Source: an uncultured bacterium (GTDB lineage Bacteria > Babelota > Babeliae > Babelales > Babelaceae). Taken from it: 64,000 bases of DNA. The translations under genes were made by a program, and so were the position numbers. A model generated the notes under the pieces. The model was not told where the DNA came from. It saw nothing but the letters and a program-made list of their open reading frames with translations, and searched no databases. The DNA lies in NCBI GenBank assembly GCA_963722385.1, contig CAVRKK010000002.1:640001-704000 (forward strand), read 5' to 3'. This document shows positions 6,992 to 64,000 of the stretch, piece after piece (position 1 is the stretch's first letter; each line of letters begins with the position of its first letter).

Positions 6992-7214
6992 ATCGCCTGT
7001 GCGGCTGGCACGCCTATGCTGCGGGCAGCAGGAGCGTGCTCCTGCACCTGTCGATTTTGTTTCTTTCTTTACATGCTTATTTCTCGATTTTGTTTAATGC
7101 CATAACCGTGCGGAGCGCATGATTACGGCAAACGCAATTCTCCTCACGGAGAATAGAAAGTTTCTTATATGTCAACAGCAGCTTCTCTATTAAAAGAGGA
7201 CTAAAATCTTTAAT
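6992..7214 (+). repeat. Intergenic hairpin repeat family, copy 1 (3'-truncated, type 2)
   Basis: ATCGCCT end, two 17-bp units, GCAGGAGCGTGCTCCTGCACC hairpin and CAATTCTCCTCACGGAGAAT; closely matches the 5' part of the copies at 52332 and 61314 and stops after CTAAAATCTTTAAT. Confidence 0.85.
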
Positions 7215-7324: not shown

Positions 7325-7501
7325 AGAAGAAAAGTGCTGTACGAAGCTCAAAAGCCGTTTGATTTGATCTTAAAAAATGAACATGGTACATTTTGGCGTC
7401 GACTTATAGATATGTTCAGGAACGGTGAATTAGATTCAAGCTTCACGTTAAGCACAATTCAGACGATTCTTGCAACACTCAGTATCAGATTTAATGATTA
7501 A
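7325..7501 (+). pseudogene. C-terminal fragment of a large serine recombinase spanning the left attachment site
   Basis: KVLYEAQKPFDLILKNEHGTFWR aligns with KVLYDANKPFDLIINNEDRVLWR at the end of the 17829-19289 recombinase. Confidence 0.8.
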
Positions 7502-7524
7502 CAGATAGTTTACTTAAGAATTCA

Positions 7525-7552
7525 AGCGAGGAGGTTAGTTAACCTCCTCGCT
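7525..7552. terminator. Hairpin, probable bidirectional terminator
   Basis: AGCGAGGAGGTTA-GT-TAACCTCCTCGCT perfect inverted repeat between convergent reading frames. Confidence 0.6.
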
Positions 7553-7608
7553 AACTCCTCAGCTTAGAAAAATAGCCACATCGATGCCTTAGAGCTATTC
7601 ATGATTGA

Positions 7609-8763
7609 CTAACTATTCTTTTCATGTTTTGTTATGGTCTTTGTAACCCACGCAGATATTGTGTACAAAGCAACAGGAGCCATCGTCTCCTTAATAGTCG
7701 CGTACTCCGACAAAGCACCCGTTTGACACGTTTGAAATACATGGTTCAGATTAGGCAATTCAATGAGTGTATACTCCTTATGCCCAGATATTTCAAAAGC
7801 TTTTTTAAGAATTGGAAATATCTTAGCTGGCGAAGTAGTCATATCAAGACTTCCTACAATCGCTAGTGTAGGAACCTTAATGGCCTCCAGAATAGGCCTT
7901 GGATCATAATTCAAATAAAAGTGATATGCAGGCGAAGTTACTATATTCACATACATATCAATCTTCGGTTCGGTAAATGCCCAAGATAGCCTTTCTGATT
8001 CACGCTTCATTGAATCTGGAAGCTTAGCCCAATAATGAACTATCGCATCTCTAATGTGCTGACCAGCAGCTTGTTTATCAATTTCTTGCTGAGCTATTGT
8101 GTAAATAGCAGATCTCAAGGATTTATCACCAGCGATAAATTCTTCACTTGCACCATCTACTCGTAGCTGCAAACCTGCTTGATAAACAATATTGTCTACA
8201 CCAAGTGCAATATATGGTGCCATAAGTACCATAAAATTTACATCTTTAGATTGTGCTGCAACCATAGTAGCTATAAGGCCACCTTCACTAAGTCCAATAA
8301 GTCCTATCTGATTCTTGTTAATCTCGCTTCTTGTTTTGAGATATTCAATTCCAGCAAGTACATCTTGAGCTAGTTCCTTGCTTGTTACATTTGCCCAATT
8401 TCCAGTAGACTTACCAACACCACGTTTGTCATATCGCAGTACTGCTATACCTTGCGAAGTTAAATGTTCTGCAAGAACTTTAAAATATTTGTGCCCCATA
8501 CCTGTTACGTCACGGTCATTTGGCCCATAGCCAGCAATAAGCACAACTGCAGGAAAGGTTTCATTGGCACTATCAGGGATTGTTAATGTTCCCGAAAGTG
8601 TTATTCCTTCTGCATTATTTGTATAACTAACTTCTTCTTGCTTGTGTTGAATTTTATGTGCTTGATTTGATTGCATTGTTTGTGCCTTCTCAAAGGATAT
8701 TATCAAAAAAGTTCCCATAATAATGGATAAAACTTGAAACATTTTAAACATGTTTACATCCAA
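7609..8763 (-). CDS. Secreted alpha/beta-fold hydrolase (CocE/peptidase S9/S15-like)
   Basis: LSGTLTIP, AGYGPNDRD, LRYDKRGVG, nucleophile elbow GLSEGG, LNHVFQ; N-terminal signal-like segment. Confidence 0.88.
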   Translation of the reverse strand: MDVNMFKMFQVLSIIMGTFLIISFEKAQTMQSNQAHKIQHKQEEVSYTNNAEGITLSGTLTIPDSANETFPAVVLIAGYGPNDRDVTGMGHKYFKVLAEHLTSQGIAVLRYDKRGVGKSTGNWANVTSKELAQDVLAGIEYLKTRSEINKNQIGLIGLSEGGLIATMVAAQSKDVNFMVLMAPYIALGVDNIVYQAGLQLRVDGASEEFIAGDKSLRSAIYTIAQQEIDKQAAGQHIRDAIVHYWAKLPDSMKRESERLSWAFTEPKIDMYVNIVTSPAYHFYLNYDPRPILEAIKVPTLAIVGSLDMTTSPAKIFPILKKAFEISGHKEYTLIELPNLNHVFQTCQTGALSEYATIKETMAPVALYTISAWVTKTITKHEKNS

Positions 8764-9049
8764 AATAACTAGAGACTAAAAAAAATATAATAGAAATATT
8801 TGTTTTAAATTTGCCTGAATAAAATGTTTTATTGCAATATGCGTTACATTAAAACATTAAATACTAATAATCACCATATTTCTGATGATTTTTATGCGCG
8901 GCAAACAGAAGAAGAAAAGACTTTCACAACACACCTCATAATCAGTTCAGTATCCTTAAGATACCTAAACATTCATAATTTAATCTCTCATAATAGTGTT
9001 TTAATGTCAAATCCAATAGACAAGACTTTAACGGTCCTCACATACAAAT

Positions 9050-11071
9050 TTAAAGAATTATCTCTTTTTGAGGTAAACTTACAGCATTGTTTATCTGCAA
9101 ACTGATTTCTGGAAACTGTTCGCTTATACGTTCCAAATTGCCATTCTGACCTTTAAGATATTTATCAAAAAACTGAACTAATAACGCTCGGGTTATTTCG
9201 ATCCCGCAGGTTGGATCAAGTTTAAGCGGTTGATCACCTTTCCATGGAATAAAAAGAAAAAGGTCAGTAAATGATCCATGTAAAGCATCTTTAATAACAG
9301 CATAATGAGAAGGACCCGTCATAGCATGCCATAGTTGGCGCATACGCTCTTCTTTTTCTTTTTTTTGTAATGAGCTCGTTACAAAAAGCGCAGGTACTGA
9401 AAACCCTTGTGTGGCTAATCCTTGCGGTTTACCATCAAGATCTGCTACCGCTTTACATATACCCAACACGCAGCAAGTAGCTAGAGAAGTGCCGCCGCCA
9501 AAAGAATGCCCAAACATTCCCAAACGCTGAAGATCGAGCTTGCCTGTTAAAATACCCTGAGGATCATTGCGGTTGATTTGCTCAAGCTCCTTTACAATGA
9601 ATCTTATATCATCAACCCATATTCCTTGTTCGCGTATAGATGCTTCCGCTTCGCTTTTCAATTGCCATAACTCTTGCAAATCCTTAAGACTCATTGCAGC
9701 TATTTTTTTGCCATTAGACAAAATAACTGCATCCGTAACATAAGGGTAAGCAATCCCAACTACAATGTACCCATGGCTTGCTAACTCCTCACATAAACTT
9801 GTATAAAAATGTATAGGAGACCCAAAACCTGGTGAAAAAATAATAACCGGATAAGTAGCACACGATTCTGAAACTTTGCCACTCACATAAGCATGCGTCT
9901 TCATTCCATCAAGAAAGGAAAGCTCATTAAGCGTTATTTTAAAATGTTCTTTTAGACCCTCTTTTATGGCAGCAGTACTGAGCGGATTAATATACCAAGC
10001 CTTTGTTGCATGAGGCTTGAGTTCAGCTGGATACCATATCTGAGCAACCAATTCTCGATTATCACTAACATTCTGAGAGTGAGCCTCTCTTCTACTTTTA
10101 TCAACCAGATGATAAGGCGTTGTCCCAATCGAAAGTTTTCCCATCGGAATCGGTAGTTTTCCTGTGTTCATAACCGAACATGCACCGCGTGCTTTTTCAG
10201 ACTCGTCTGAAAGTTTAAATTTCTTTAGTATTGTGCGTTGTGCATCATTCAATTGAAACGTATCTATTTTCAAAGTTCTTTGATTATCAGTTAACTTCAG
10301 AAGCTTAGGGAGCTCAGTTTTAATACGATCAAAAATTCTATCCATAACATCCTTTGGAGAGATAGAAATTTTTTCCAGGAAATGTGCAATAGTACTGCTT
10401 AGGTGACCAAAAGTAATATGCGGCTCATAGCGATATTGCTCGCTAAAAGAAGAATCATACAATTGCTTGCCATGTGATTTTTTGTATATTTCGTTGGCAT
10501 GAAGCAATGCATCTTTGATAGCTGCCCGCAATGACATCAAACCTTCTTTTCCATCATCAATTTTTATAACCAACTCCTTGATGCTACCAAAAAAATCAAA
10601 TCGATCGCTTATTTTTACCACAGATAGCGGCCCCGTTCCTTTATGGTGCTTTTGCATATCCGTCAGAGCATCAACCAATAAATACTCATTGTGCTCATCC
10701 ATTTCACCCAAGTAGTACAAGGTAATCCATAATCGTTCTTTTTTCACGAAACTTCGTGCAAAATCCTTCACCACATCTATTTTATTGAATCGTTTTAAAG
10801 CATAATTTACTTCCTGATCAATGATCTTATTTATCTCTTCTCCGATTCTTCTTTGCAATTCATAGACGAAACTGTTTGGAGAAAACTCCGTTACCACCAT
10901 AGGACCTGGCACACTAAATTTTCTTTTAGAAGCTTCAGCTACACGATAAACATCTGACGATGGAGGTATATGAGCATCTTTAACATAACATTGATTTGCG
11001 ATCATGAATGCAGCAAATAGCATAAAAAACAATGTAAAGCCAAAATTAAACATTTTCAAACGTTCAACCAT
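9050..11071 (-). CDS. Fusion of a 2H-phosphoesterase-like domain and a PAF-acetylhydrolase-like alpha/beta hydrolase; signal peptide
   Basis: N-half LWITLYYLG...YEPHITFG; C-half RELVAQIWYP, FSPGFG, LASHGYIV, GHSFGG, HGSFTD. Confidence 0.75.
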   Translation of the reverse strand: MVERLKMFNFGFTLFFMLFAAFMIANQCYVKDAHIPPSSDVYRVAEASKRKFSVPGPMVVTEFSPNSFVYELQRRIGEEINKIIDQEVNYALKRFNKIDVVKDFARSFVKKERLWITLYYLGEMDEHNEYLLVDALTDMQKHHKGTGPLSVVKISDRFDFFGSIKELVIKIDDGKEGLMSLRAAIKDALLHANEIYKKSHGKQLYDSSFSEQYRYEPHITFGHLSSTIAHFLEKISISPKDVMDRIFDRIKTELPKLLKLTDNQRTLKIDTFQLNDAQRTILKKFKLSDESEKARGACSVMNTGKLPIPMGKLSIGTTPYHLVDKSRREAHSQNVSDNRELVAQIWYPAELKPHATKAWYINPLSTAAIKEGLKEHFKITLNELSFLDGMKTHAYVSGKVSESCATYPVIIFSPGFGSPIHFYTSLCEELASHGYIVVGIAYPYVTDAVILSNGKKIAAMSLKDLQELWQLKSEAEASIREQGIWVDDIRFIVKELEQINRNDPQGILTGKLDLQRLGMFGHSFGGGTSLATCCVLGICKAVADLDGKPQGLATQGFSVPALFVTSSLQKKEKEERMRQLWHAMTGPSHYAVIKDALHGSFTDLFLFIPWKGDQPLKLDPTCGIEITRALLVQFFDKYLKGQNGNLERISEQFPEISLQINNAVSLPQKEIIL

Positions 11072-11272
11072 AATAAATCCTTAATTATAATAACCAGTTT
11101 AGATGATATGATCCCTAGACTGCAACGCTTATTAATTTGAGCTATCATTTCAGAGAAAAACGCTACACCTCATTAAAATGTTTTTTTAGTTCCCTATTGA
11201 TAGATGGGATAACTCGGCTTTTGCCTCACGGGACTTCAGAATGGCTGAATAGCAGGCCCAAACAGCCAATTC

Positions 11273-12675
11273 TTGGTTGTCTTATGTCCTAAGATTAAGG
11301 AATACCGGGAGTCTCTTTCGGCACTTAGCATCAAGCTTACGAGCTACGGTGGCTGGCCGATCAGCGTAGAATTTAAGCCATCTCCATACAGCAAGACACA
11401 GTATTCATATGCCCCGCTCAAGCCCGTTACTGTAGCTGGAGACACGTATAATCTTGCTGATATGGATGCCAAAGCATACTTGGATCTTTATCGTCGCCAT
11501 CCGCAAGCAATTGATCCTGAGGACATGGATATGATTCAGGGGCGCATTCTGTTAAATACCGATTTTCTAATAGCTTCGCCGCAAGGGCCGAAAATTTATT
11601 GTTATAATTTTATAACTAACAGCGATCCCGAGCAGTATAAAAAAGAGCTCAAGCGTATTATAAGCCGCATGATGCTTGAGTGGTTCACGAGCCCAACGAG
11701 CAAGTTTTTCCAAGAGCGTTATAAAATTGCACACGCAGCGCTCACGAAGTATTCTCAAAAGAAAAGGGGGTTCTTATACCGGGTACATCAGTAACGACAC
11801 AGCCGAGCGAAGCTCAAGAGGCTCAAGCTTTTTGGAGCAAATATCACGCATTGCAGCAAAAAAAGCGTACCGATTTTCGGGCTTTGGTGCTCTCAAGGGG
11901 TTATCATGACTGGAAAGCAGACTTACTCGATGAGGTTATGCATGATAAAGAGGAGAGCGCTTTGCTTGCGTTTCTTGGTGACGATTTATTAGCAGCAGGG
12001 TACGCTTTGGTGATACTATTGTTTCCTGAAGAGTACACCGATAATGAATTGCTATACGCCTATAACTTTTTGAGGGATCTGCGAAGGGTTCCGCTGGCCT
12101 CACGTGCTGAAATTGATCCCATGTGGATCAATGGAGAAAATACACGTTTGCTCAAAGAGCTTATACGGAAGAATCTAGAGTTCCAGAAGACGCCGCTCAA
12201 GCAGGAAATATTTCTTCTCAATATTGTATTTCAGCCGCACTGTTTGTCGGGATATCTTGGCCATGTCGCGCTTGATAAAAAGCCTTATCTTGCCGGTATG
12301 ATAAAGCTGCTAGCATACAATGATCTTCGAGCTAGACATAATGAAGCATTGGCTGTATCAGTCGATGGCATTGATAATAGTTGGCTCCAAGAGCAGGATT
12401 ATTTAATTTTTAAGCAGGCTTTGGAAACATACTTTACCGATAAAAAGAATACCGTACCTAAACAGCAGCTGTTTCTTATTAATCTTGTGAAAATTGCCAC
12501 ATATCGTGATAGTCTCGATGTTAATGAATTATATGATAACTGTGTTACAAGCGATCGTGTGCAGCTCAACGCCTATAACATGCTCCGCCAGATGCTCAAC
12601 AAGCCCCGTATTCCTTCGCTCGATCATATCAATATGACCTGGCTCAACAGTCTCCCGGTCAATAAATTTGCCTAA
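11273..12675 (+). pseudogene. Hypothetical gene apparently split by two frameshifts
   Basis: ORFs 11273-11794, 11676-11909 and 11851-12675 overlap in succession, all with non-ATG starts; frame switches fall near homopolymer runs at ~11757-11770 and ~11858-11864. Confidence 0.5.
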
Positions 12676-12927
12676 GAATATCAAACAATCAACTATAAGT
12701 TTGCATTTTACCGTTTTTACCCTTTCCATGCCACCTATTCTCACATCTTCCTCATCCTATGCAATGAAAAGCATGAGCAATTCCTCTCAAATCCTTAAAA
12801 AAGCTCATCAACAGCTGCTAAAGCTTGACGTTAAAGGCTGTATATCCTTGACGCGGAGTAAAAAATTTACTAGCATATTCCACACTAAAATTCTACCTTT
12901 TAGGCCAAGAAGAAGGACAAAATCAAT

Positions 12928-14169
12928 ATGAGGAAGCTATTTTTACTGCTCCTAGCAGCCTTATCAATTGCACAAAAAATAGTAACCATGGAGGGCGAAA
13001 GCTCATTAGGCATCCTTAGAGAACAATCTTTGATTTTAAGTAGCACTACGCCAGCAGCGGGAATTAACATAACAGCGGAAAACAGCCAAAGGCAAAACCT
13101 TTCTTTGCCTTTCAATTTAAGCAATAATGAGCCAAGATCATATCCTCGCGAGATATACTGTGTAATACTCGCAGGGGGAGTGGGCGAACGCTTATGGCCT
13201 TTAAGCAGAAAAAATAAGCCTAAACAATTTCTACCATTTACAAACAAATTATTTGTCGAAATGGTTCTCGATTGGTTGCAAACCATTGAGGGGAATAAGC
13301 ATCACTGGGTTGTCACAACTGAATCTCTAGCAGCCTCTATTAAGGAGGTCCTAGGGGAAAAAGTTGAACATATTGTTACTGAACCAGATCGTCGCAACAC
13401 TGGCCCTGCCGTTTTACTCGCTTGCCATCAAATAGCGGCCATACATCCCGATGCTTTCGTTATTTTTCTACCAGCTGATGAGGATATTCCTGAATACGAA
13501 AAATTTGGTGCAGCAGTCAATATAGTCTTTCAACAAACCACATCGCCAAACCTCATTCTTTTTGGCATTCGACCTCGTTATCCGGCAACAGGATATGGTT
13601 ACATAGAATACGAAGAAGAACTTAATCAACAATCTATCGTGCCAGTATTAAGCTTTCACGAAAAGCCCTCGCTGGATAGGGCGAAAGAGTATCTTGAAAG
13701 AAGAAATATGTTATGGAATAGTGGCATCGTATGTGGGCAAGTATCTTCCTTTTTAAGGCAATATCAGCAATATGCCGGTGAAATGTATGAAAAAATGCTT
13801 AATTTCCTTAACGGTAGCACCTCTTATCATGAACTACCTGCCCTCTCTATAGATTACGCTATTTTAGAGAGGAGCCAACAGATTTCTGTTTTGCCAGTTG
13901 ATTTTCAATGGGAACACATAGGCGATCTTGCTAGCTACCTTGCCCTACGGTCAGCTCAACAAACAACAGCAACAGTATTGCCTATTAATAGCAATAATAA
14001 CCTCATACATACAACCAATTTACAACTTATTGCCTTAGTTGATGTAAATGATCTCTGCGTGGTGGAAGAAGATGGAATACTTCTTGTCATTCCAAGAGGA
14101 AGTTGTGAAAAAATCAAAGCGGTTATTTCACAGTTAAAAAAAGATACGGGACAAGAAAGGTTTCTTTGA
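12928..14169 (+). CDS. manC: Mannose-1-phosphate guanylyltransferase with an N-terminal signal-peptide-like extension
   Basis: VILAGGVGERLWPLSR..PKQF, EPDRRNTGPA, TGYGYI, FHEKP, WNSG, SIDYAILE; preceded by MRKLFLLLLAALSIA and a linker. Confidence 0.9.
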   Translation: MRKLFLLLLAALSIAQKIVTMEGESSLGILREQSLILSSTTPAAGINITAENSQRQNLSLPFNLSNNEPRSYPREIYCVILAGGVGERLWPLSRKNKPKQFLPFTNKLFVEMVLDWLQTIEGNKHHWVVTTESLAASIKEVLGEKVEHIVTEPDRRNTGPAVLLACHQIAAIHPDAFVIFLPADEDIPEYEKFGAAVNIVFQQTTSPNLILFGIRPRYPATGYGYIEYEEELNQQSIVPVLSFHEKPSLDRAKEYLERRNMLWNSGIVCGQVSSFLRQYQQYAGEMYEKMLNFLNGSTSYHELPALSIDYAILERSQQISVLPVDFQWEHIGDLASYLALRSAQQTTATVLPINSNNNLIHTTNLQLIALVDVNDLCVVEEDGILLVIPRGSCEKIKAVISQLKKDTGQERFL

Positions 14170-14636
14170 TGTAGTCAAAATACTCTGACCCTAATTTTTT
14201 CATGCCCAGATTTTTTGGCCTATTCCACTTTTTAATATCAAGGATTTCAAAAAGCTGCTTTAAATCTGATTTTGATAATAGCGAAAAGTACAGCAAACTG
14301 CTGGATAATTATAAACAATTAAGCCCGCTGTTAAGGCGGGCCTGTTCAGGTGGTACCCGGCCATGTTTCATGCTCGCGGCCACCTTATTTTTTGTATGTT
14401 GATGCAAGTCAAAAAATATTATATACCAATTTTGTGCAAAGTCAAGCAAAATCTTACATATTTTAACAAAATATAATAAATTACTCGCCCTTAGCCAATA
14501 TGATACAATTTTCTCATCCCCCAAAACTCACTTCAGATGAAAAGATGGCAAGATATACCTAAATTTGAGATGGGGGCGGGGCCGCCTTGTATTCACATAT
14601 AACAATAATATATATCCGCTCCAGATCGCGCAATAA

Positions 14637-14936
14637 ATGTTGTATAAATATATATTAACGATGAACACAAATAATGAAGTAACACGGATGATAGTTGAAC
14701 TTCCAAAAAGCTTACATAGGAAGGCCAAGGTGGTAGCCGCTTTAAGGGGTATCAGCATAAAACAGCTTCTTATTGCAGGATTAAATCAGCAACTAGAGGA
14801 GTCCGCAGAATGCCTTGATTGTAAAGGCAGCGAATTCAATGAGGAAACAATGAAGATAATGGGGGAAATTCTTCGAGGTGAAGGGATTATTGAAGCTAAA
14901 GATACTAAGGATCTCCTCAAAAAACTAAGAGAATAG
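14637..14936 (+). CDS. Ribbon-helix-helix antitoxin (RelB/DinJ-like C-terminus)
   Basis: RMIVELPKSLHRKAKVVAALRGISIKQLL RHH pattern plus FNEETM...GEG...DLLKKL tail; toxin remnant follows immediately. Confidence 0.65.
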   Translation: MLYKYILTMNTNNEVTRMIVELPKSLHRKAKVVAALRGISIKQLLIAGLNQQLEESAECLDCKGSEFNEETMKIMGEILRGEGIIEAKDTKDLLKKLRE

Positions 14937-14939
14937 ATA

Positions 14940-15069
14940 ATGCTGATACCTCGTTTTACGCATCAATTTAAAAAAGATCGAAAGTTCTCTGAAAAACGGG
15001 GGTCGAGAAAAAGATAATACCCATATCACTTTTACTCGTATTGCGACTCACTCAGGTCTTAAATTTTGA
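14940..15069 (+). pseudogene. YafQ/RelE-family toxin remnant (internal deletion and frameshift)
   Basis: MLIPRFTHQFKKDRKFSEKRG resembles a YafQ N-terminus; in another frame ITFTRIATHSGL resembles the C-terminal RxxxHS motif. Confidence 0.7.
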
Positions 15070-15390
15070 CTATTCAACTTACCTCACTGAGAACATATAA
15101 AAAAGAAACGCTTCTTGTATTTATCGAAAATCGCATTATACTCATTCTCAATTAACCGAATCAATTTACGAGGAACAAACCAATGTTAATGCTATCACTA
15201 TTTCGAGCTATAGCTGCTCTGAAAATGGGCAGAACTTGAGTTGGTTTGTGCTTGTTGCTTAATGCGATAGCCCTTGTAGATTCAGCTTGCCTCCTTTTCA
15301 GTTACCATAATCCCCAATCAATATATTTTTTTCATTGAGTATTGATCGAAAAGACGTGATCAATGCTGTGACCATCTTTAGGAAATACCT

Positions 15391-15633
15391 ATGGGCAAAC
15401 CTAATTTTTCAATTGCGCCCGATAGAATCTTGACCGCTGAGGAGCGCGATAGGTTAACACATTTTGTTACTTTGTTGATAACCATTGACACACGATTGCG
15501 AAAGACAAGTAAGCGCTCAAAGGCAAGCAAAGCAAAGTCGGAACTATATCATAAGTCCATTCTCGAATTGACCTTATTTTTCTTCTTAATTGCTTTATAC
15601 TTGAGCTATCTCAATGAGCAAAAAAGCGATTAA
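15391..15633 (+). CDS. Small hypothetical protein upstream of rep
   Basis: ATG with AGGA ribosome-binding site; overlaps the rep start. Confidence 0.5.
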   Translation: MGKPNFSIAPDRILTAEERDRLTHFVTLLITIDTRLRKTSKRSKASKAKSELYHKSILELTLFFFLIALYLSYLNEQKSD

Positions 15634-16747
15634 CATGGTGGACACTGTTATTTTAATCTTACATAAAGATATGTTCAAAATCGGTGCCCCCGAAGCATTT
15701 TCCCCTTCAGCAAAATGGGTTGCAAATTCGCCTACGAGCCTTGCTATTCGTTCAAAGCAAAATCCCACAAAAAAAGAACTACAGGCTGGCATCTATAAGC
15801 CGCGACTTACTTTGACCAATCGAATCAAGCCCACAGGAGGCGTAGAATTGATCCTTAAAGTTGAGTTTTCATTGCCGAAGCTTCTTTTCGGCAATAACTT
15901 TGACGAGCTTGCAAGAAAGGATTTTGCCGCGCTAACACGAAAATTAGCCGTCATCCTGAATACCATGGGCATTTCCACGACTGCTGCAGCAATCGAACAA
16001 GCAGATGTTTCGGGTATCCATTATTCTAAAAATATTCCGTTAACTGATGGCTCTATTCCTTTTCAGTATATTAACAAAATTAGAGAAGCGAATATTCAAG
16101 AAGCTCTCGATAAAAGTAAGACTGAATATAGGATCGGACATAGCTTTAAATGGCATTGCAATTCCTACGAGGTTATTTTTTACGATAAAATTAAGGATCT
16201 CGAGGCAGCAAGAAAAAGCAATAAGCGATCCCTGGAAAAAGACAGCGAGCTGCAACTTGAGCTCTTTGAGCGCTTCAAAAAGCAAAAAAAGTTTGAGCTT
16301 TTACGTATGGAAGTACGACTTAATAAGCGGCAAAAAGCTAAAAGCCTATTTAAAAAGCTGGGCATTAAATCTGATTTCACCTTCAAGAGTTTATTCAAAG
16401 TTGCGATAGCAAAGAGAGTATTACTGCATTATCTTGAGCAAATCGAAAGCAAAAGACCGGCAATACTTGATTACTCTGCGATAGGTGATAAAAACCTACT
16501 TGCTACCTTGGTTACCCATAACGCTGAGCTCAATAGCAAATATATCTTGCAAATATTTGGGCTAAAAAAGGCCCTTGAGTCTTTTGATATTAGAGAGTTG
16601 CGTGCGATGCTTTCGCGCTTTAGCAACCGCACCTGGTATCGGTTAATTGCAGACGCAAACAAAATAAAATTACTTCCAGCAATTAGGCCTTTGGAAGTTA
16701 TAAAAGGATGCATCAGTAAGTTTAAACCATTGCGAATATCGACATAG
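15614..16747 (+). CDS. Replication initiation protein, phage/plasmid gene II/X (Rep_trans-like, rolling-circle) family
   Basis: EFSLPKLLFGNN, IHYSKNI, IFYDKIKD (candidate catalytic Tyr) and LLRMEVRL motifs; lies inside the island. Confidence 0.65.
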   Translation: MSKKAINMVDTVILILHKDMFKIGAPEAFSPSAKWVANSPTSLAIRSKQNPTKKELQAGIYKPRLTLTNRIKPTGGVELILKVEFSLPKLLFGNNFDELARKDFAALTRKLAVILNTMGISTTAAAIEQADVSGIHYSKNIPLTDGSIPFQYINKIREANIQEALDKSKTEYRIGHSFKWHCNSYEVIFYDKIKDLEAARKSNKRSLEKDSELQLELFERFKKQKKFELLRMEVRLNKRQKAKSLFKKLGIKSDFTFKSLFKVAIAKRVLLHYLEQIESKRPAILDYSAIGDKNLLATLVTHNAELNSKYILQIFGLKKALESFDIRELRAMLSRFSNRTWYRLIADANKIKLLPAIRPLEVIKGCISKFKPLRIST

Positions 16748-16797
16748 TTCCACCATAAAAGTTCAAGGACTGTTTCGCAAATCTTTGCAAAACTTAT

Positions 16798-17193
16798 TTA
16801 GCGCCGTACTTCTGGCTGATAGGTGACAGCTTCCTGATATTCAGTCCTTTTGAGTTTCTTGGCTTTACTTTCCTGAGGCACTTTTTTCGAAGGAACAATA
16901 GTGAACTCAAAGCCCAAAGCTTTTAATAAAACGATAAGTGTATCCAGACGAGGATTCCCACGCGAAGATAGGGTTTTATATAAACTTTCACGATTTAATC
17001 CTGACTTTTCAGCCAGACAACTCATGCCACCTTGTGCATTCACAATATCTCTAAGAGCCAATAGAAGAACTTTTTTTGCGTTTTTATCACTTGGAGTTAC
17101 ATCCTCCAAGGCTGCGTTAAGGTAGCCAGCAGCTTTTTTAGTATCTTTAAGTCTTCTATAGAGCCATTCTTCATGATTTGTATACTTTGCCAT
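16798..17193 (-). CDS. Addiction module antidote, Xre-HTH antitoxin (HI1420-like)
   Basis: AAGYLNAALE...ALRDIVNAQGGMSCLAEKSGLNRESLYKTLSSRGNPRLDT. Confidence 0.9.
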   Translation of the reverse strand: MAKYTNHEEWLYRRLKDTKKAAGYLNAALEDVTPSDKNAKKVLLLALRDIVNAQGGMSCLAEKSGLNRESLYKTLSSRGNPRLDTLIVLLKALGFEFTIVPSKKVPQESKAKKLKRTEYQEAVTYQPEVRR

Positions 17194-17527
17194 TTTTCTG
17201 TTCTCTTTCCAAATAATGATAATAATATTTATTTGCTTTACTGATATCGCTTTTCTGTTCTTTCTTAATCCCAGCCATTATAATTAGCAGTTGATCTTTA
17301 GCAATTTTCACATAATAAACTCGGTAACCAGGGCCATAATCAATTACCAATTCACATATTCCGTTCGCAGTTTTAATGGGTTTACAATTGTTAAAAATAC
17401 CAGATCTCAATCGACCAATGTAAGCAAGAATTTTGTCCTGTGTTTTCTCATCGGGAATGCCTTCTAGCCATTTCTCAAAAATATCAATGTTATTGGGCGT
17501 CTTGTAATGAATAATTTTGAAAACCAT
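17171..17527 (-). CDS. Addiction module killer protein, RelE/HigB-family toxin (HI1419-like)
   Basis: FEKWL...RLRSGIF..CKPI...GICELVIDYGPGYRVYY...GIKKEQKSDISKA; toxin-first gene order. Confidence 0.9.
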   Translation of the reverse strand: MVFKIIHYKTPNNIDIFEKWLEGIPDEKTQDKILAYIGRLRSGIFNNCKPIKTANGICELVIDYGPGYRVYYVKIAKDQLLIIMAGIKKEQKSDISKANKYYYHYLEREQKNGKVYKS

Positions 17528-17562
17528 CTACTCCCCGAATCTTTTGCAAATAACGATAACAA

Positions 17563-17580
17563 TGTAGCATATTGGCTACA
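17563..17580. promoter_or_regulatory. Palindromic operator upstream of the toxin-antitoxin operon
   Basis: TGTAGC-N6-GCTACA about 35 bp upstream of the toxin start; autoregulation by the antitoxin is inferred. Confidence 0.55.
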
Positions 17581-17828
17581 ATTTGTAAAGCATTGATTAG
17601 GCATCAAGGATGCAAACTCAAATATTGATGAGCTGGATATGTTGAAATTCTTGTTAACAAAATCGGCATCATAATAGGCCTGCTATATGGGCTGACTTAA
17701 AGGAATATTGTATATACGGAAGGCAGAGTTCGCATTCACATACCCGCTATATAAGATTGCTATAGCTGCAAAACGCGTCCTTTATGATAAAATAGCAAAA
17801 TATTAATCCAATATTATCGGGACTACTA

Positions 17829-19289
17829 ATGAAAGCAATTCTTATCGCTCGCGTAAGCACGGAGGAGCAAAGGGAAGCCGGCAATTCTTTACCAGCACAA
17901 GTAGCACGTCTAGAAAAATATTGTTTGAGCAAGGGCTTTACTATTTGGAAGACCTATAGTTTTGACGAAAGTGCCTATAAAGCACAGCGTAGCGAGTTTG
18001 ATGCGATCTTGGACATGATTAATAGCCAAAAAGAGAAAATTGTTGTGTGCTGCGATAAAGTAGATCGGCTCACGCGCAATATCTTTGATAAGCGCGTATC
18101 GCTTCTCTATGAGAAAGCGTTAAACGACCAAGCTGAGCTACATTTTGTTTCTGAAGGACAGATCATAAATAGCTCTATTTCTGCGGCCACAAAATTTCAG
18201 TTTAGCATCAGTCTCGGGCTTGCAAAATATTACTCAGATGCGATTAGCGATAACGTTAAGCGAGCTACCGAGCAAAAGCTGCGTAAGGGCGAATGGATAT
18301 CTAAGGCTCCCCATGGATACGATTACGTAACATTATCTGATGGCAAAAAAGACCTCAAAATAGTAGAGCACGAGGCATACCTGGTTAAGAAGGCTTTTGA
18401 GCTTTATGCTACCGGCGCTTTTTCTCTCAATCTCTTGCTCAAAAGATTAAAGGAAGACTTTGGTGTTGTCTGGAACAAGAGCTTTCTGGGCAAGCTTTTT
18501 ATAAACCCCTTTTATTACGGCATAATGGAGATTAAAGGCAAGCAATATCCCCATAAGTACCCACCACTTATAACTAAATCACTCTATGACCAAGTACAGA
18601 AAACAAAAAGCAACTTTAATAAGCGGAAAAAGTTCAAGTATGCTGGCCTGCCTTATATTTATCGAGGGTTGCTTCGCTGTGGCGATTGCGGACTCGCCAT
18701 AACCCCAGAGAAGCACAAGGGCTTTGTTTATTACCATTGTACCCAATATTATGGCAAGCATGATGCTACCTGGTTTCGGGAAGAAAAGATAACCGAGCTA
18801 TTAGGAAGCGTATTTAAGCGCTTACAAATGTCTGACAATATCACAAACCAGATTAGTGAAGCTCTTTCTACGGATCATGCCAATAAAGCTAATTTTACTG
18901 AAAAAAGGCGTTCTGAGCTTACGACAGAGCATAAAAAATTAACCACAATGCTCGATAATCTCTACCTTGATAAACTACAAGGGAGTATTACTGAGCGCGA
19001 TTATGACAGATTTTACAGCCGACTCCGCGACCAACTCATTGAAGTTGAGTCCCATCTTGGCCAGTTAGAAGATGCAGATGAAACTTATTATAAAACTGCA
19101 AAGTGCTTACTGAAGCTCATATCCAAAGCCCACCAACTCTTTTTAAATTCGGAAATGGAAGAACGACGGTTACTTATCAAGCTCGTACTTTCGAACTTGA
19201 GGATAGAAGGAGAAAAGGTGCTCTACGACGCTAATAAGCCATTTGATTTGATCATAAATAATGAGGATCGTGTACTTTGGCGTCCCTAA
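17829..19289 (+). CDS. Large serine recombinase (integrase) with zinc ribbon and coiled coil
   Basis: ARVSTEEQ catalytic Ser motif, DKVDRLTR, APHGY, NPFYYG, LRCGDCG...YYHC; last codons overlap the tRNA-Glu 3' end. Confidence 0.95.
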   Translation: MKAILIARVSTEEQREAGNSLPAQVARLEKYCLSKGFTIWKTYSFDESAYKAQRSEFDAILDMINSQKEKIVVCCDKVDRLTRNIFDKRVSLLYEKALNDQAELHFVSEGQIINSSISAATKFQFSISLGLAKYYSDAISDNVKRATEQKLRKGEWISKAPHGYDYVTLSDGKKDLKIVEHEAYLVKKAFELYATGAFSLNLLLKRLKEDFGVVWNKSFLGKLFINPFYYGIMEIKGKQYPHKYPPLITKSLYDQVQKTKSNFNKRKKFKYAGLPYIYRGLLRCGDCGLAITPEKHKGFVYYHCTQYYGKHDATWFREEKITELLGSVFKRLQMSDNITNQISEALSTDHANKANFTEKRRSELTTEHKKLTTMLDNLYLDKLQGSITERDYDRFYSRLRDQLIEVESHLGQLEDADETYYKTAKCLLKLISKAHQLFLNSEMEERRLLIKLVLSNLRIEGEKVLYDANKPFDLIINNEDRVLWRP

Positions 19290-19355
19290 GGGGATTTGAA
19301 CCCCTGTTTTCGCCGTGAAAGGGCGATGTCCTGGACCGGGCTAGACGATAGGGAC
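19278..19355 (-). tRNA. tRNA-Glu(TTC)
   Basis: Reverse complement GTCCCTATCGTCTAG...CTTTCAC...GGTTCAAATCCCCTTAGGGACGCCA folds as a cloverleaf with encoded CCA. Confidence 0.97.
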
Positions 19356-28678: not shown

Positions 28679-29012
28679 ATCGCCTCCGCGGCTAGCGCGA
28701 CTACGCGTCGAGCGGCAGGGCGGCGGCCCTGCACCCGTTGCCTAATTTATTTTTCTCTACATGCCTGTCTTTTATATTTCTTTCCATGCTATAAGCATGC
28801 GTGGCGCATGCTTATAGCTATCGCAATTCTCCTAACGGAGAATAGAAAAATATGGGTTTTTTATCATGGAGCGTAGCGCACATGATAAATGGCGTAAGTT
28901 ATCGTACGCTTTGGCGTACGATAACTACTCACCAAGCCTATAAGCACTAAGCATAAACGCTATGGGGATTGTTAAGGGACGATGTCCCTTAACCGCTAGC
29001 CGCGCAGGCGAT
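28679..29012 (+). repeat. Intergenic hairpin repeat family, copy 2 (complete, type 1)
   Basis: Terminal inverted repeats ATCGCCTCCGCGGCTAGCG...CGCTAGCCGCGCAGGCGAT and at least six internal hairpins; the right end is partly duplicated at ~29057-29073. Confidence 0.9.
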
Positions 29013-63718: not shown

Positions 63719-64000
63719 CGCTCCATAAAAAATGGAGACGCTCTGGCATACCTCACTTATGTTCTCCATGCTTAGCCTTTACTTAGACACATACCCTCCT
63801 AAAGGCTTGATATAGCATATGCCTCGTAGTTTGATAGTTTACATGCAAGCTTGACAAGCTACGTTAACCTCACTTGCACGCCCTACTTTTTACTCACCAG
63901 CCTTTACTTGTAGGGGAGCATAACTGGCGGATTGTTTTTTTTACGAGCACATTCAAGCTCGGCATGCCCATAAGTATTAGAGAGTATGCCTACGTCTCCA

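Follow-up and report, generated by a model that had tools for sequence, protein, structure and literature searches.

The question raised by this locus was whether a large serine integrase gene carries its own attachment (att) site, such that integration beside a tRNA gene exchanges the C-terminus of the enzyme, and what such an exchange would accomplish. The locus lies in a window of 64,000 nucleotides (positions 640,001 to 704,000 of contig CAVRKK010000002.1, assembly GCA_963722385.1) from an uncultured member of the Babelaceae; positions given without a contig name are those of this window. Within it, positions 7401-19284 form an integrative, plasmid-like element that belongs to a large family and is seated at the tip of a tRNA-Glu gene. 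The integrase is encoded by an open reading frame (ORF) at 17829-19289 on the + strand (486 amino acids, aa), whose terminal WRP and stop codon overlap the 3' end of the tRNA-Glu gene (ttc; 19278-19355, - strand), and this target is intact, with its CCA.

The core TTTGGCGTC occurs on the + strand of the window solely at 7392 and 19276 and is absent from the - strand, where, as on the + strand, ca. 0.2 copies were expected from base composition. The left core (7392-7400) and the right core (19276-19284, overlapping the CCA end of tRNA-Glu) sit inside a 71-nt repeat that is 80% identical (7330-7400 vs. 19214-19284). Joining 19284 to 7401 gave a single open frame of 518 aa and a circle of 11,884 bp. 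The GC content was 0.386 across the whole interval, compared to 0.496 in the left flank and 0.438 in the right. A preliminary description had reported the two cores, the WRP ending antisense to the acceptor stem of tRNA-Glu, and the 486- and 518-aa forms, the latter with a 33-aa tail; all of these were reproduced, and the match between the ends was longer than the 9 bp originally given. A chance 9-mer was ruled out as its origin by the 71-nt repeat, by the tRNA-end pattern of the family, and by the codon-biased differences described below. The same description had placed a terminator-like hairpin after the tail. A hairpin is present between the tail and a convergent hydrolase gene (7525-7552; 12 pairs, -21.8 kcal/mol, z = -3.5, with 1 of 200 shuffles equally good) and is a possible terminator, but it lacks a clean T run and was not listed by the terminator scan.

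The arrangement recurs throughout the family. A protein search yielded 3,358 matches among 8,000 scored candidates, and the best 120 were examined. Judged from the protein sequences alone, 74 of these end no more than 5 residues from the Trp, 32 read through a tRNA in antisense, and 14 end otherwise; three of the last group (P0019, P0021, and P0023) were mis-parsed short or tRNA forms, leaving 11/120 with a different tail. The closest named relatives were from Candidatus Babeliales, which makes this order the probable one for the host, as far as a mobile gene can indicate it. The Trp codon was found at the 3' end of a tRNA gene (Glu, Asp, Gln, Arg, or Asn) in 20 of 22 loci, the exceptions being one inside an array (L046) and one with a broken gene (L047). 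From 82 metagenome and viral loci, 61 C-termini were obtained, which lay at a called tRNA (32), at a tRNA-like T-arm (11), at another tail (16), or at a contig end (2). The tRNA-derived C-termini ranged from three residues to long read-throughs. A second element of the same layout is present in the same genome at tRNA-Gln, with its tail 8,507 bp upstream and a frameshift near the start of its integrase gene. Viral contigs gave no match with P0020 as the query and two distant loci with an alignment as the query, while phage and plasmid collections gave two records each at 30-33% identity; no terminal repeat was present in the two phage records examined. There is thus no sign in these sequences that the elements are phages.

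The paired ends share 5-7 nt counted from TGG in 20 of 22 pairs, and in the present element the 7-nt run from TGG matches tRNA-Glu. When the ends were joined, dyad symmetry peaked between bases +5 and +6 from the T of TGG (0.52, compared to 0.14-0.37 at other centers; 20 joined ends, many of them kin). The crossover is therefore placed, from this family symmetry, probably at 7398-7399 in the present copy, in which the symmetry is weak (3/14 pairs); a crossover at +5/+6 would regenerate the tRNA CCA from the Trp codon. As read from these ends, the serine integrase of this family uses the final 5-7 bases of tRNA genes for recombination and has attP at the Trp codon near the end of its own gene. 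The earlier proposal that attP lies within the integrase gene and that integration exchanges the C-terminus was upheld, and the pattern extends across the family: chromosomal copies end in tRNA-antisense filler in place of a conserved, protein-selected tail, which lies at their far end. This architecture is very probably correct.

By translation, the inserted copy specifies the short enzyme, and the free circle would specify an enzyme with a conserved 33-residue tail. The detached tail (7394-7501, + strand) comprises W and 34 further residues, of which 33 are new after the shared WR, and was recognized by its match to the C-terminus of P0020, by its homologs, and by its pattern of selection. 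Alignment to homologous recombinases, which the preliminary description had suggested, matched this tail to the C-terminus of the natural long-form P0020 (probability 98%, E-value 6e-14). Both forms also occur within a single 90% cluster (cluster 8), the seven members of which have bodies identical to that of P0069 at 455-464 of 482 positions: four stop after WCA, and the other three each have a different tail. The idea that long forms make up a clade of their own was considered and rejected, for they are scattered among the short forms in a quick tree of 51 rows. A terminal repeat was found in one of the 82 loci (L112; 123 nt), giving a circle of 7,575 bp that encodes a 540-aa long-form integrase and a rep product; an ORF of 407 aa spans the join, and no tRNA is present. 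A locus 93% identical to it (L108) ends in tRNA-Asn. A tail profile built from 21 tails was searched against 151 genomes of the phylum and matched in 59 of them; each of the 146 matches listed falls in an open frame no longer than 192 aa, and hence none of them is joined to an integrase.

Selection on the tail was examined using sites that had been retrieved with a DNA matrix limited to their first 30 bases. There were 26 distinct matches; the sites of multi-site loci (L039, L045, and L048) and one degenerate site were left out, and 11 were kept. Over tail codons 16-30, identity among these was 0.57, 0.70, and 0.41 at codon positions 1, 2, and 3, respectively. The ratio of nonsynonymous to synonymous differences per site (pN/pS) was 0.53 in frame, compared to 1.16 and 1.9 in the shifted frames (uncorrected, with pS near saturation); it was 0.91 for ten array units from L039 and L045. 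A codon-position permutation gave p = 0.003, and 11/11 tails were open for at least 31 codons (chance 0.26 each), both figures being overstated because the sites are related by kinship. Codons 1-10 coincide with the att half-site, and the array units keep ca. 45 bp before diverging freely. The codon statistics indicate that the tail is under protein-level selection beyond the att site. The conserved positions are internal (D6, F8, R9, N10, and I22), and no common terminal motif was present in the 21 aligned tails. Nothing meaningful was matched by the tail in Pfam. In an AlphaFold model of P0020, the tail was predicted as two helices (residues 484-491 and 501-515; predicted local distance difference test, pLDDT, 59-79; predicted template-modeling score, pTM, 0.45), and SPbeta integrase chains were the top structural matches (E-value 1e-18).

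What the tail might do follows most simply from where each form is made. Because the circle would yield the long form and a lone integrated copy only the short one, the simplest function for the tail is to bias the direction of recombination, a reading to which we give about an even chance. The long form is made from a molecule that must integrate, and its tail would favor attP x attB. The short form is the only one available to a lone integrated copy, which must excise, and the tailless enzyme would perform that excision. As modeled, the two-helix tail would be at the end of the zinc-ribbon domain, beside the coiled-coil, and its exchange would replace a separate recombination directionality factor (RDF). 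The SPbeta RDF is described as binding the second DNA-binding domain (DBD2) and the coiled-coil hinge, with the C-terminal integrase residue F532 important for direction (PMC11722253), and RDFs fused to the integrase C-terminus are described as acting within the subunit (PMC5737554).

Several observations weigh against this directional function. In the engineered fusions, a C-terminal appendage promotes excision, which is the opposite sign (PMC5737554). An RDF may be encoded among the small ORFs of the element (14637-14936 and 15391-15633). The long forms of cluster 8 bear three different tails, so tail and body are not closely paired in sequence. The tail of the present copy departs from the consensus at two conserved Phe positions and may be decaying or non-cognate, and the rebuilt attP of this copy shares the weak symmetry given above (3/14 pairs). 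Eight natural joined sites scored 0.32, with no clear symmetry peak. The model of P0020 is of low overall confidence and gave no contacts. Finally, the enzyme of the L112 circle is 51% identical to that of the window, and the circle could instead be a tandem repeat that was collapsed. A broader proposal was also framed: that a phylum-wide clade of serine integrases is self-switching, the detachable two-helix tail of 33 residues being a built-in directionality module by which one gene supplies integrase from the circle and excisionase from the chromosome without an RDF; and that these enzymes recognize chiefly the tRNA arm, accept any arm downstream, move between tRNA targets via the crossover dinucleotide, and build integron-like rows of toxin-antitoxin cassettes that lack an integrase. 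Taken whole, this proposal is speculative and is less likely than not.

The main alternative accepts the same architecture and regards the exchange as a dimmer or off switch for activity, as in phage Mx8. The short form would be weak or dead and the element locked in, with excision either rare or accomplished by the long form from a tandem neighbor or an incoming circle. A truncated Mx8 integrase is less active (cited in PMC4701971), McMurdie et al. proposed that full DsiB function is confined to the circle or to a position behind a tandem island (PMC3146451), and many decayed and tandem copies were seen here. The tRNA-derived ends, moreover, would be filler because their lengths vary from three residues to long read-throughs. 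Against this, a lone integrated element must rely on the short form to produce its circle, and the family includes a circular member (L112); the short form also retains all three Pfam domains and the coiled-coil. We regard such a loss of activity as a plausible but minority explanation.

A second alternative concerns this locus only. It takes 7330-7501 to be the uninterrupted end of a single relative that decayed without having been split, or the tail to be the leftover of a third element since deleted; the tail would then not be the resident's own, and the true left end would be lost. The segment to the left of the core does derive from another integrase. The 62 bases there encode an integrase C-terminal segment, not host DNA, and are 48/62 (77%) identical to the 3' end of the resident integrase gene. 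Of the 22 residues encoded, 18 match the homolog P0002 and 14 match the resident enzyme, and the differences over the first 16 codons number 2, 0, and 6 at codon positions 1, 2, and 3. The left flank was accordingly assigned to another related integrase, because it is closer to P0002 and the differences are biased to the third position; a decayed long target-site duplication was rejected on the same two grounds. On the basis of these nucleotides, residues, and codon positions, 7330-7393 (+ strand) was annotated as the 3'-end remnant of an older, related integrase of the tRNA-Glu type, which constitutes the left host-side arm. Weak, word-based searches found no full-length protein with remnant plus tail and, with the tail region of P0020 as the query, retrieved only P0020.

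Other observations are in keeping with a decayed relative. A body-plus-tail remnant lies elsewhere in the genome (C2:482775-482540). Symmetry at this locus is weak, and is the same (3/14) whether the tail is paired with the resident arm or with the remnant arm. A syntenic empty site was not found in the five genomes searched, in which the order TamB-tRNA-Glu is not kept. On the other side, tandem integration yields this very join. In L139, two elements that are 82% alike follow one another head to tail; the enzyme of the first terminates in a tail and that of the second in tRNA-His. Comparable internal joins are present in genome G001 (L046). GC is low through the whole interval, no further junction turned up between the cores, and the 7-nt run from TGG matches tRNA-Glu. 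Across 21 tail sites the host-side arm shows little conservation, which fits an enzyme able to land before an old element. Newcomers thus insert before old elements and give the old integrase end a newcomer's tail, as is seen in L139 and cluster 8. We infer that the left 62 bases are the end of an older tandem element, so that the tail would belong to the resident enzyme. The preliminary description had named the contiguous tail of a decayed recombinase at 7325-7501 as a case that would overturn its model; the part concerning the origin of the segment left of the core proved correct, while the join itself is explained by tandem integration, and the model was kept. This second alternative is thus rather unlikely, though its probability is not negligible. 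Further decayed integrase pieces and orphan tail sites were noted in the genome of the window (G000; C2:48.5-74 kb, C2:482-483 kb, C2:949-953 kb, C2:431815, C2:1083820, and C2:1265530), several of them far from a matching tRNA.

Switching of C-terminal degrons driven by attP is known for phage repressors, and the exchange could likewise control protein stability through a degron on one of the forms. Because conservation lies inside the tail and not at its end, and because tails and filler ends are heterogeneous, this explanation is quite improbable. That the open frame after the core is a chance occurrence, or is kept solely as a DNA-binding site, would suit the overlap of codons 1-10 with the att half-site and the divergence of array units after ca. 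45 bp, but is scarcely credible given that selection continues at codons 16-30, beyond any half-site, and that natural joined proteins exist.

The element was compared, by description, to known systems. Among the closest are the ssrA islands of Dehalococcoides, in which dsiB always overlaps attL and the enzyme may attain full function only when it is on the circle or lies behind a tandem island (McMurdie 2011, PMC3146451). Common to both are a large serine recombinase gene whose 3' end overlaps the att site, an externally provided stop codon, tandem islands, and islands without an integration module. The differences are that many tRNAs, at their CCA ends, serve as targets here instead of ssrA; that the core is 5-7 nt in the family (7-9 nt in this element), compared to a direct repeat of ca. 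20 bp; and that the scanned ORFs of the element include a Rep_trans-like gene instead of homologs of DsiA, ParB, or Mom or the six-gene module (PMC3146451). Here, in addition, the missing tail has been identified and is under selection. In the streptococcal rumA integrative and conjugative elements (ICEs), the att site is likewise within a single serine integrase gene, the excised form differs in length and C-terminus, and a functional difference was proposed (Ambroset 2016, PMC4701971); those elements disrupt a protein gene and are conjugative, whereas in the present case the tRNA is intact and no conjugation module was recognized in the 11.9-kb element. Mx8 also has attP inside int, and its integration substitutes a short tail for the C-terminus and reduces activity (cited in PMC4701971). 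Its enzyme, however, is a tyrosine recombinase in which 112 residues are replaced by 13, as opposed to 33 replaced by 1 in a serine enzyme here.

With the large serine integrases of phages (SPbeta SprA/SprB, phiC31, Bxb1, and LI), the present enzyme shares domain order and fold; their att sites are described as lying outside the gene, with direction set by a separate RDF (PMC11722253, PMC5737554). The domain hallmarks of large serine recombinases are present: a Resolvase catalytic domain with a Ser nucleophile, a Recombinase domain, and a zinc ribbon with a coiled-coil. Resolvase, Recombinase, and Zn_ribbon_recom all scored above cut-off in the short form, which has the catalytic S10 and the candidate zinc ligands C284, C287, C304, and H311. 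The serine recombinases of stacked islands, namely CcrA/CcrB/CcrC of the staphylococcal cassette chromosome and XisF, gave weak profile matches (33-91 bits vs. cut-offs of 375-900); for CcrA, CcrB, and CcrC in NCBIfam, the scores were 75, 71.7, and 32.6 bits, below the cut-offs of 900, 700, and 900. The word “tRNA” is absent from the main text of Durrant 2022 (PMC10083194). No paper was found that describes this tRNA-CCA family or tests such a tail, and supplementary island tables, which were outside the search, may list such elements.

The family bears on how serine integrases without an RDF choose a direction, for which an exchange at an att site within the gene was proposed to matter in the accounts of DsiB and the rumA ICEs. 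It offers matched isoform pairs, short and defined sites, and a module of 33 residues that lends itself to addition or removal. Should the tail set direction, the family would provide a one-gene switch of natural origin, as well as integrases directed to conserved tRNA ends that they leave undamaged. The arrangement also explains the frequent occurrence in databases of these recombinases with tRNA-antisense, non-protein C-termini.

The remainder of the element was annotated by profile searches. Its cargo, as assigned by Pfam, includes two alpha/beta hydrolases on the - strand (7609-8763 and 9050-11071) and a ManC-like nucleotidyltransferase (12928-14169); two ORFs (11273-11794 and 11851-12675) had no Pfam family. 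The second hydrolase ORF specifies a 673-aa protein in which a 2H-phosphoesterase-like domain is joined to a PAF-acetylhydrolase-like hydrolase. A small, Arc-like (ribbon-helix-helix) regulator of 99 aa (14637-14936, + strand; phrog_582, E-value 7e-4) had no counterpart in 35 related loci. Just before the rep gene, an 80-aa ORF (15391-15633, + strand) is a candidate regulator or directionality factor; it had tblastn matches in 3/35 related loci and no family in Pfam, PHROGs, or NCBIfam. The rep gene (15614-16747, + strand; 377 aa) looks like a Rep_trans/gpII-type protein, either a rolling-circle initiator or a MOB_T relaxase, on three weak but agreeing lines: a match to phrog_702 (E-value 7e-4), an Atlas score of 0.97 to clusters with Phage_CRI on 25-31% of members, and a model (pTM 0.78) for which RepDE-type structures ranked 2-4 (E-values 0.002-0.0035). 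It had no Pfam match and no sequence match in the PDB. A Rep_trans-like homolog is present upstream of the integrase in 23/35 tRNA-adjacent loci. A type II toxin-antitoxin pair (16798-17527, - strand), with a RelE/ParE-type toxin and an HI1420-type antitoxin (TIGR02683 and TIGR02684, both above cut-off), precedes the integrase.

Additional arrangements of tails were encountered in related loci. In L035 (G003:C1:614592), a well-kept tail lies 14 kb from an integrase at tRNA-Asp on the opposite strand, which could reflect an inversion. Tail-bounded islands of 2-5 kb without an integrase are present at tRNA-Glu or tRNA-Asp (L187:6894-11170, L186:3938-8967, and L185:6920-9923); these were possibly moved in trans or have decayed. 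In L039:647-4543 (G039:C8), five units of 697-846 bp each start with a tail-type half-site and carry toxin-antitoxin genes: RelB/ParE, Gp49/HTH, DUF433/DUF5615, HI1420-type, and a lone RelB-like gene. This array has six sites, the first and last of which are 97% alike over 92 bp, and its left arms are not integrase-like. It forms an integron-like row before an intact element at tRNA-Asp, and similarly close-spaced sites occur in L045. A short palindromic repeat adjoins many tRNA ends and tail junctions (L186:6232-6610 and 8572-8967; L188:1136-1546; the 3' ends of tRNA-Asp, tRNA-Ile, and tRNA-Ser in G000). In three cases it is beside an 80-aa GIY-YIG gene, and it is probably a second small mobile family on the same CCA ends.

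Elsewhere in the window, a dispersed repeat of ca. 165 bp was noted at 6992-7160 and again at 28679, 44718, 52386, 59142, and 61337. It had 44 matches in the genome, 27 of them at least 120 bp long, and no Rfam family; it is a candidate for an RNA or for an element resembling a miniature inverted-repeat transposable element. At 63730-63999 (- strand), Rfam matched a transfer-messenger RNA (tmRNA) with 57 bits; ARAGORN placed the tmRNA of the genome elsewhere (C2:511186-511542), and the call in the window is a second or misplaced one.

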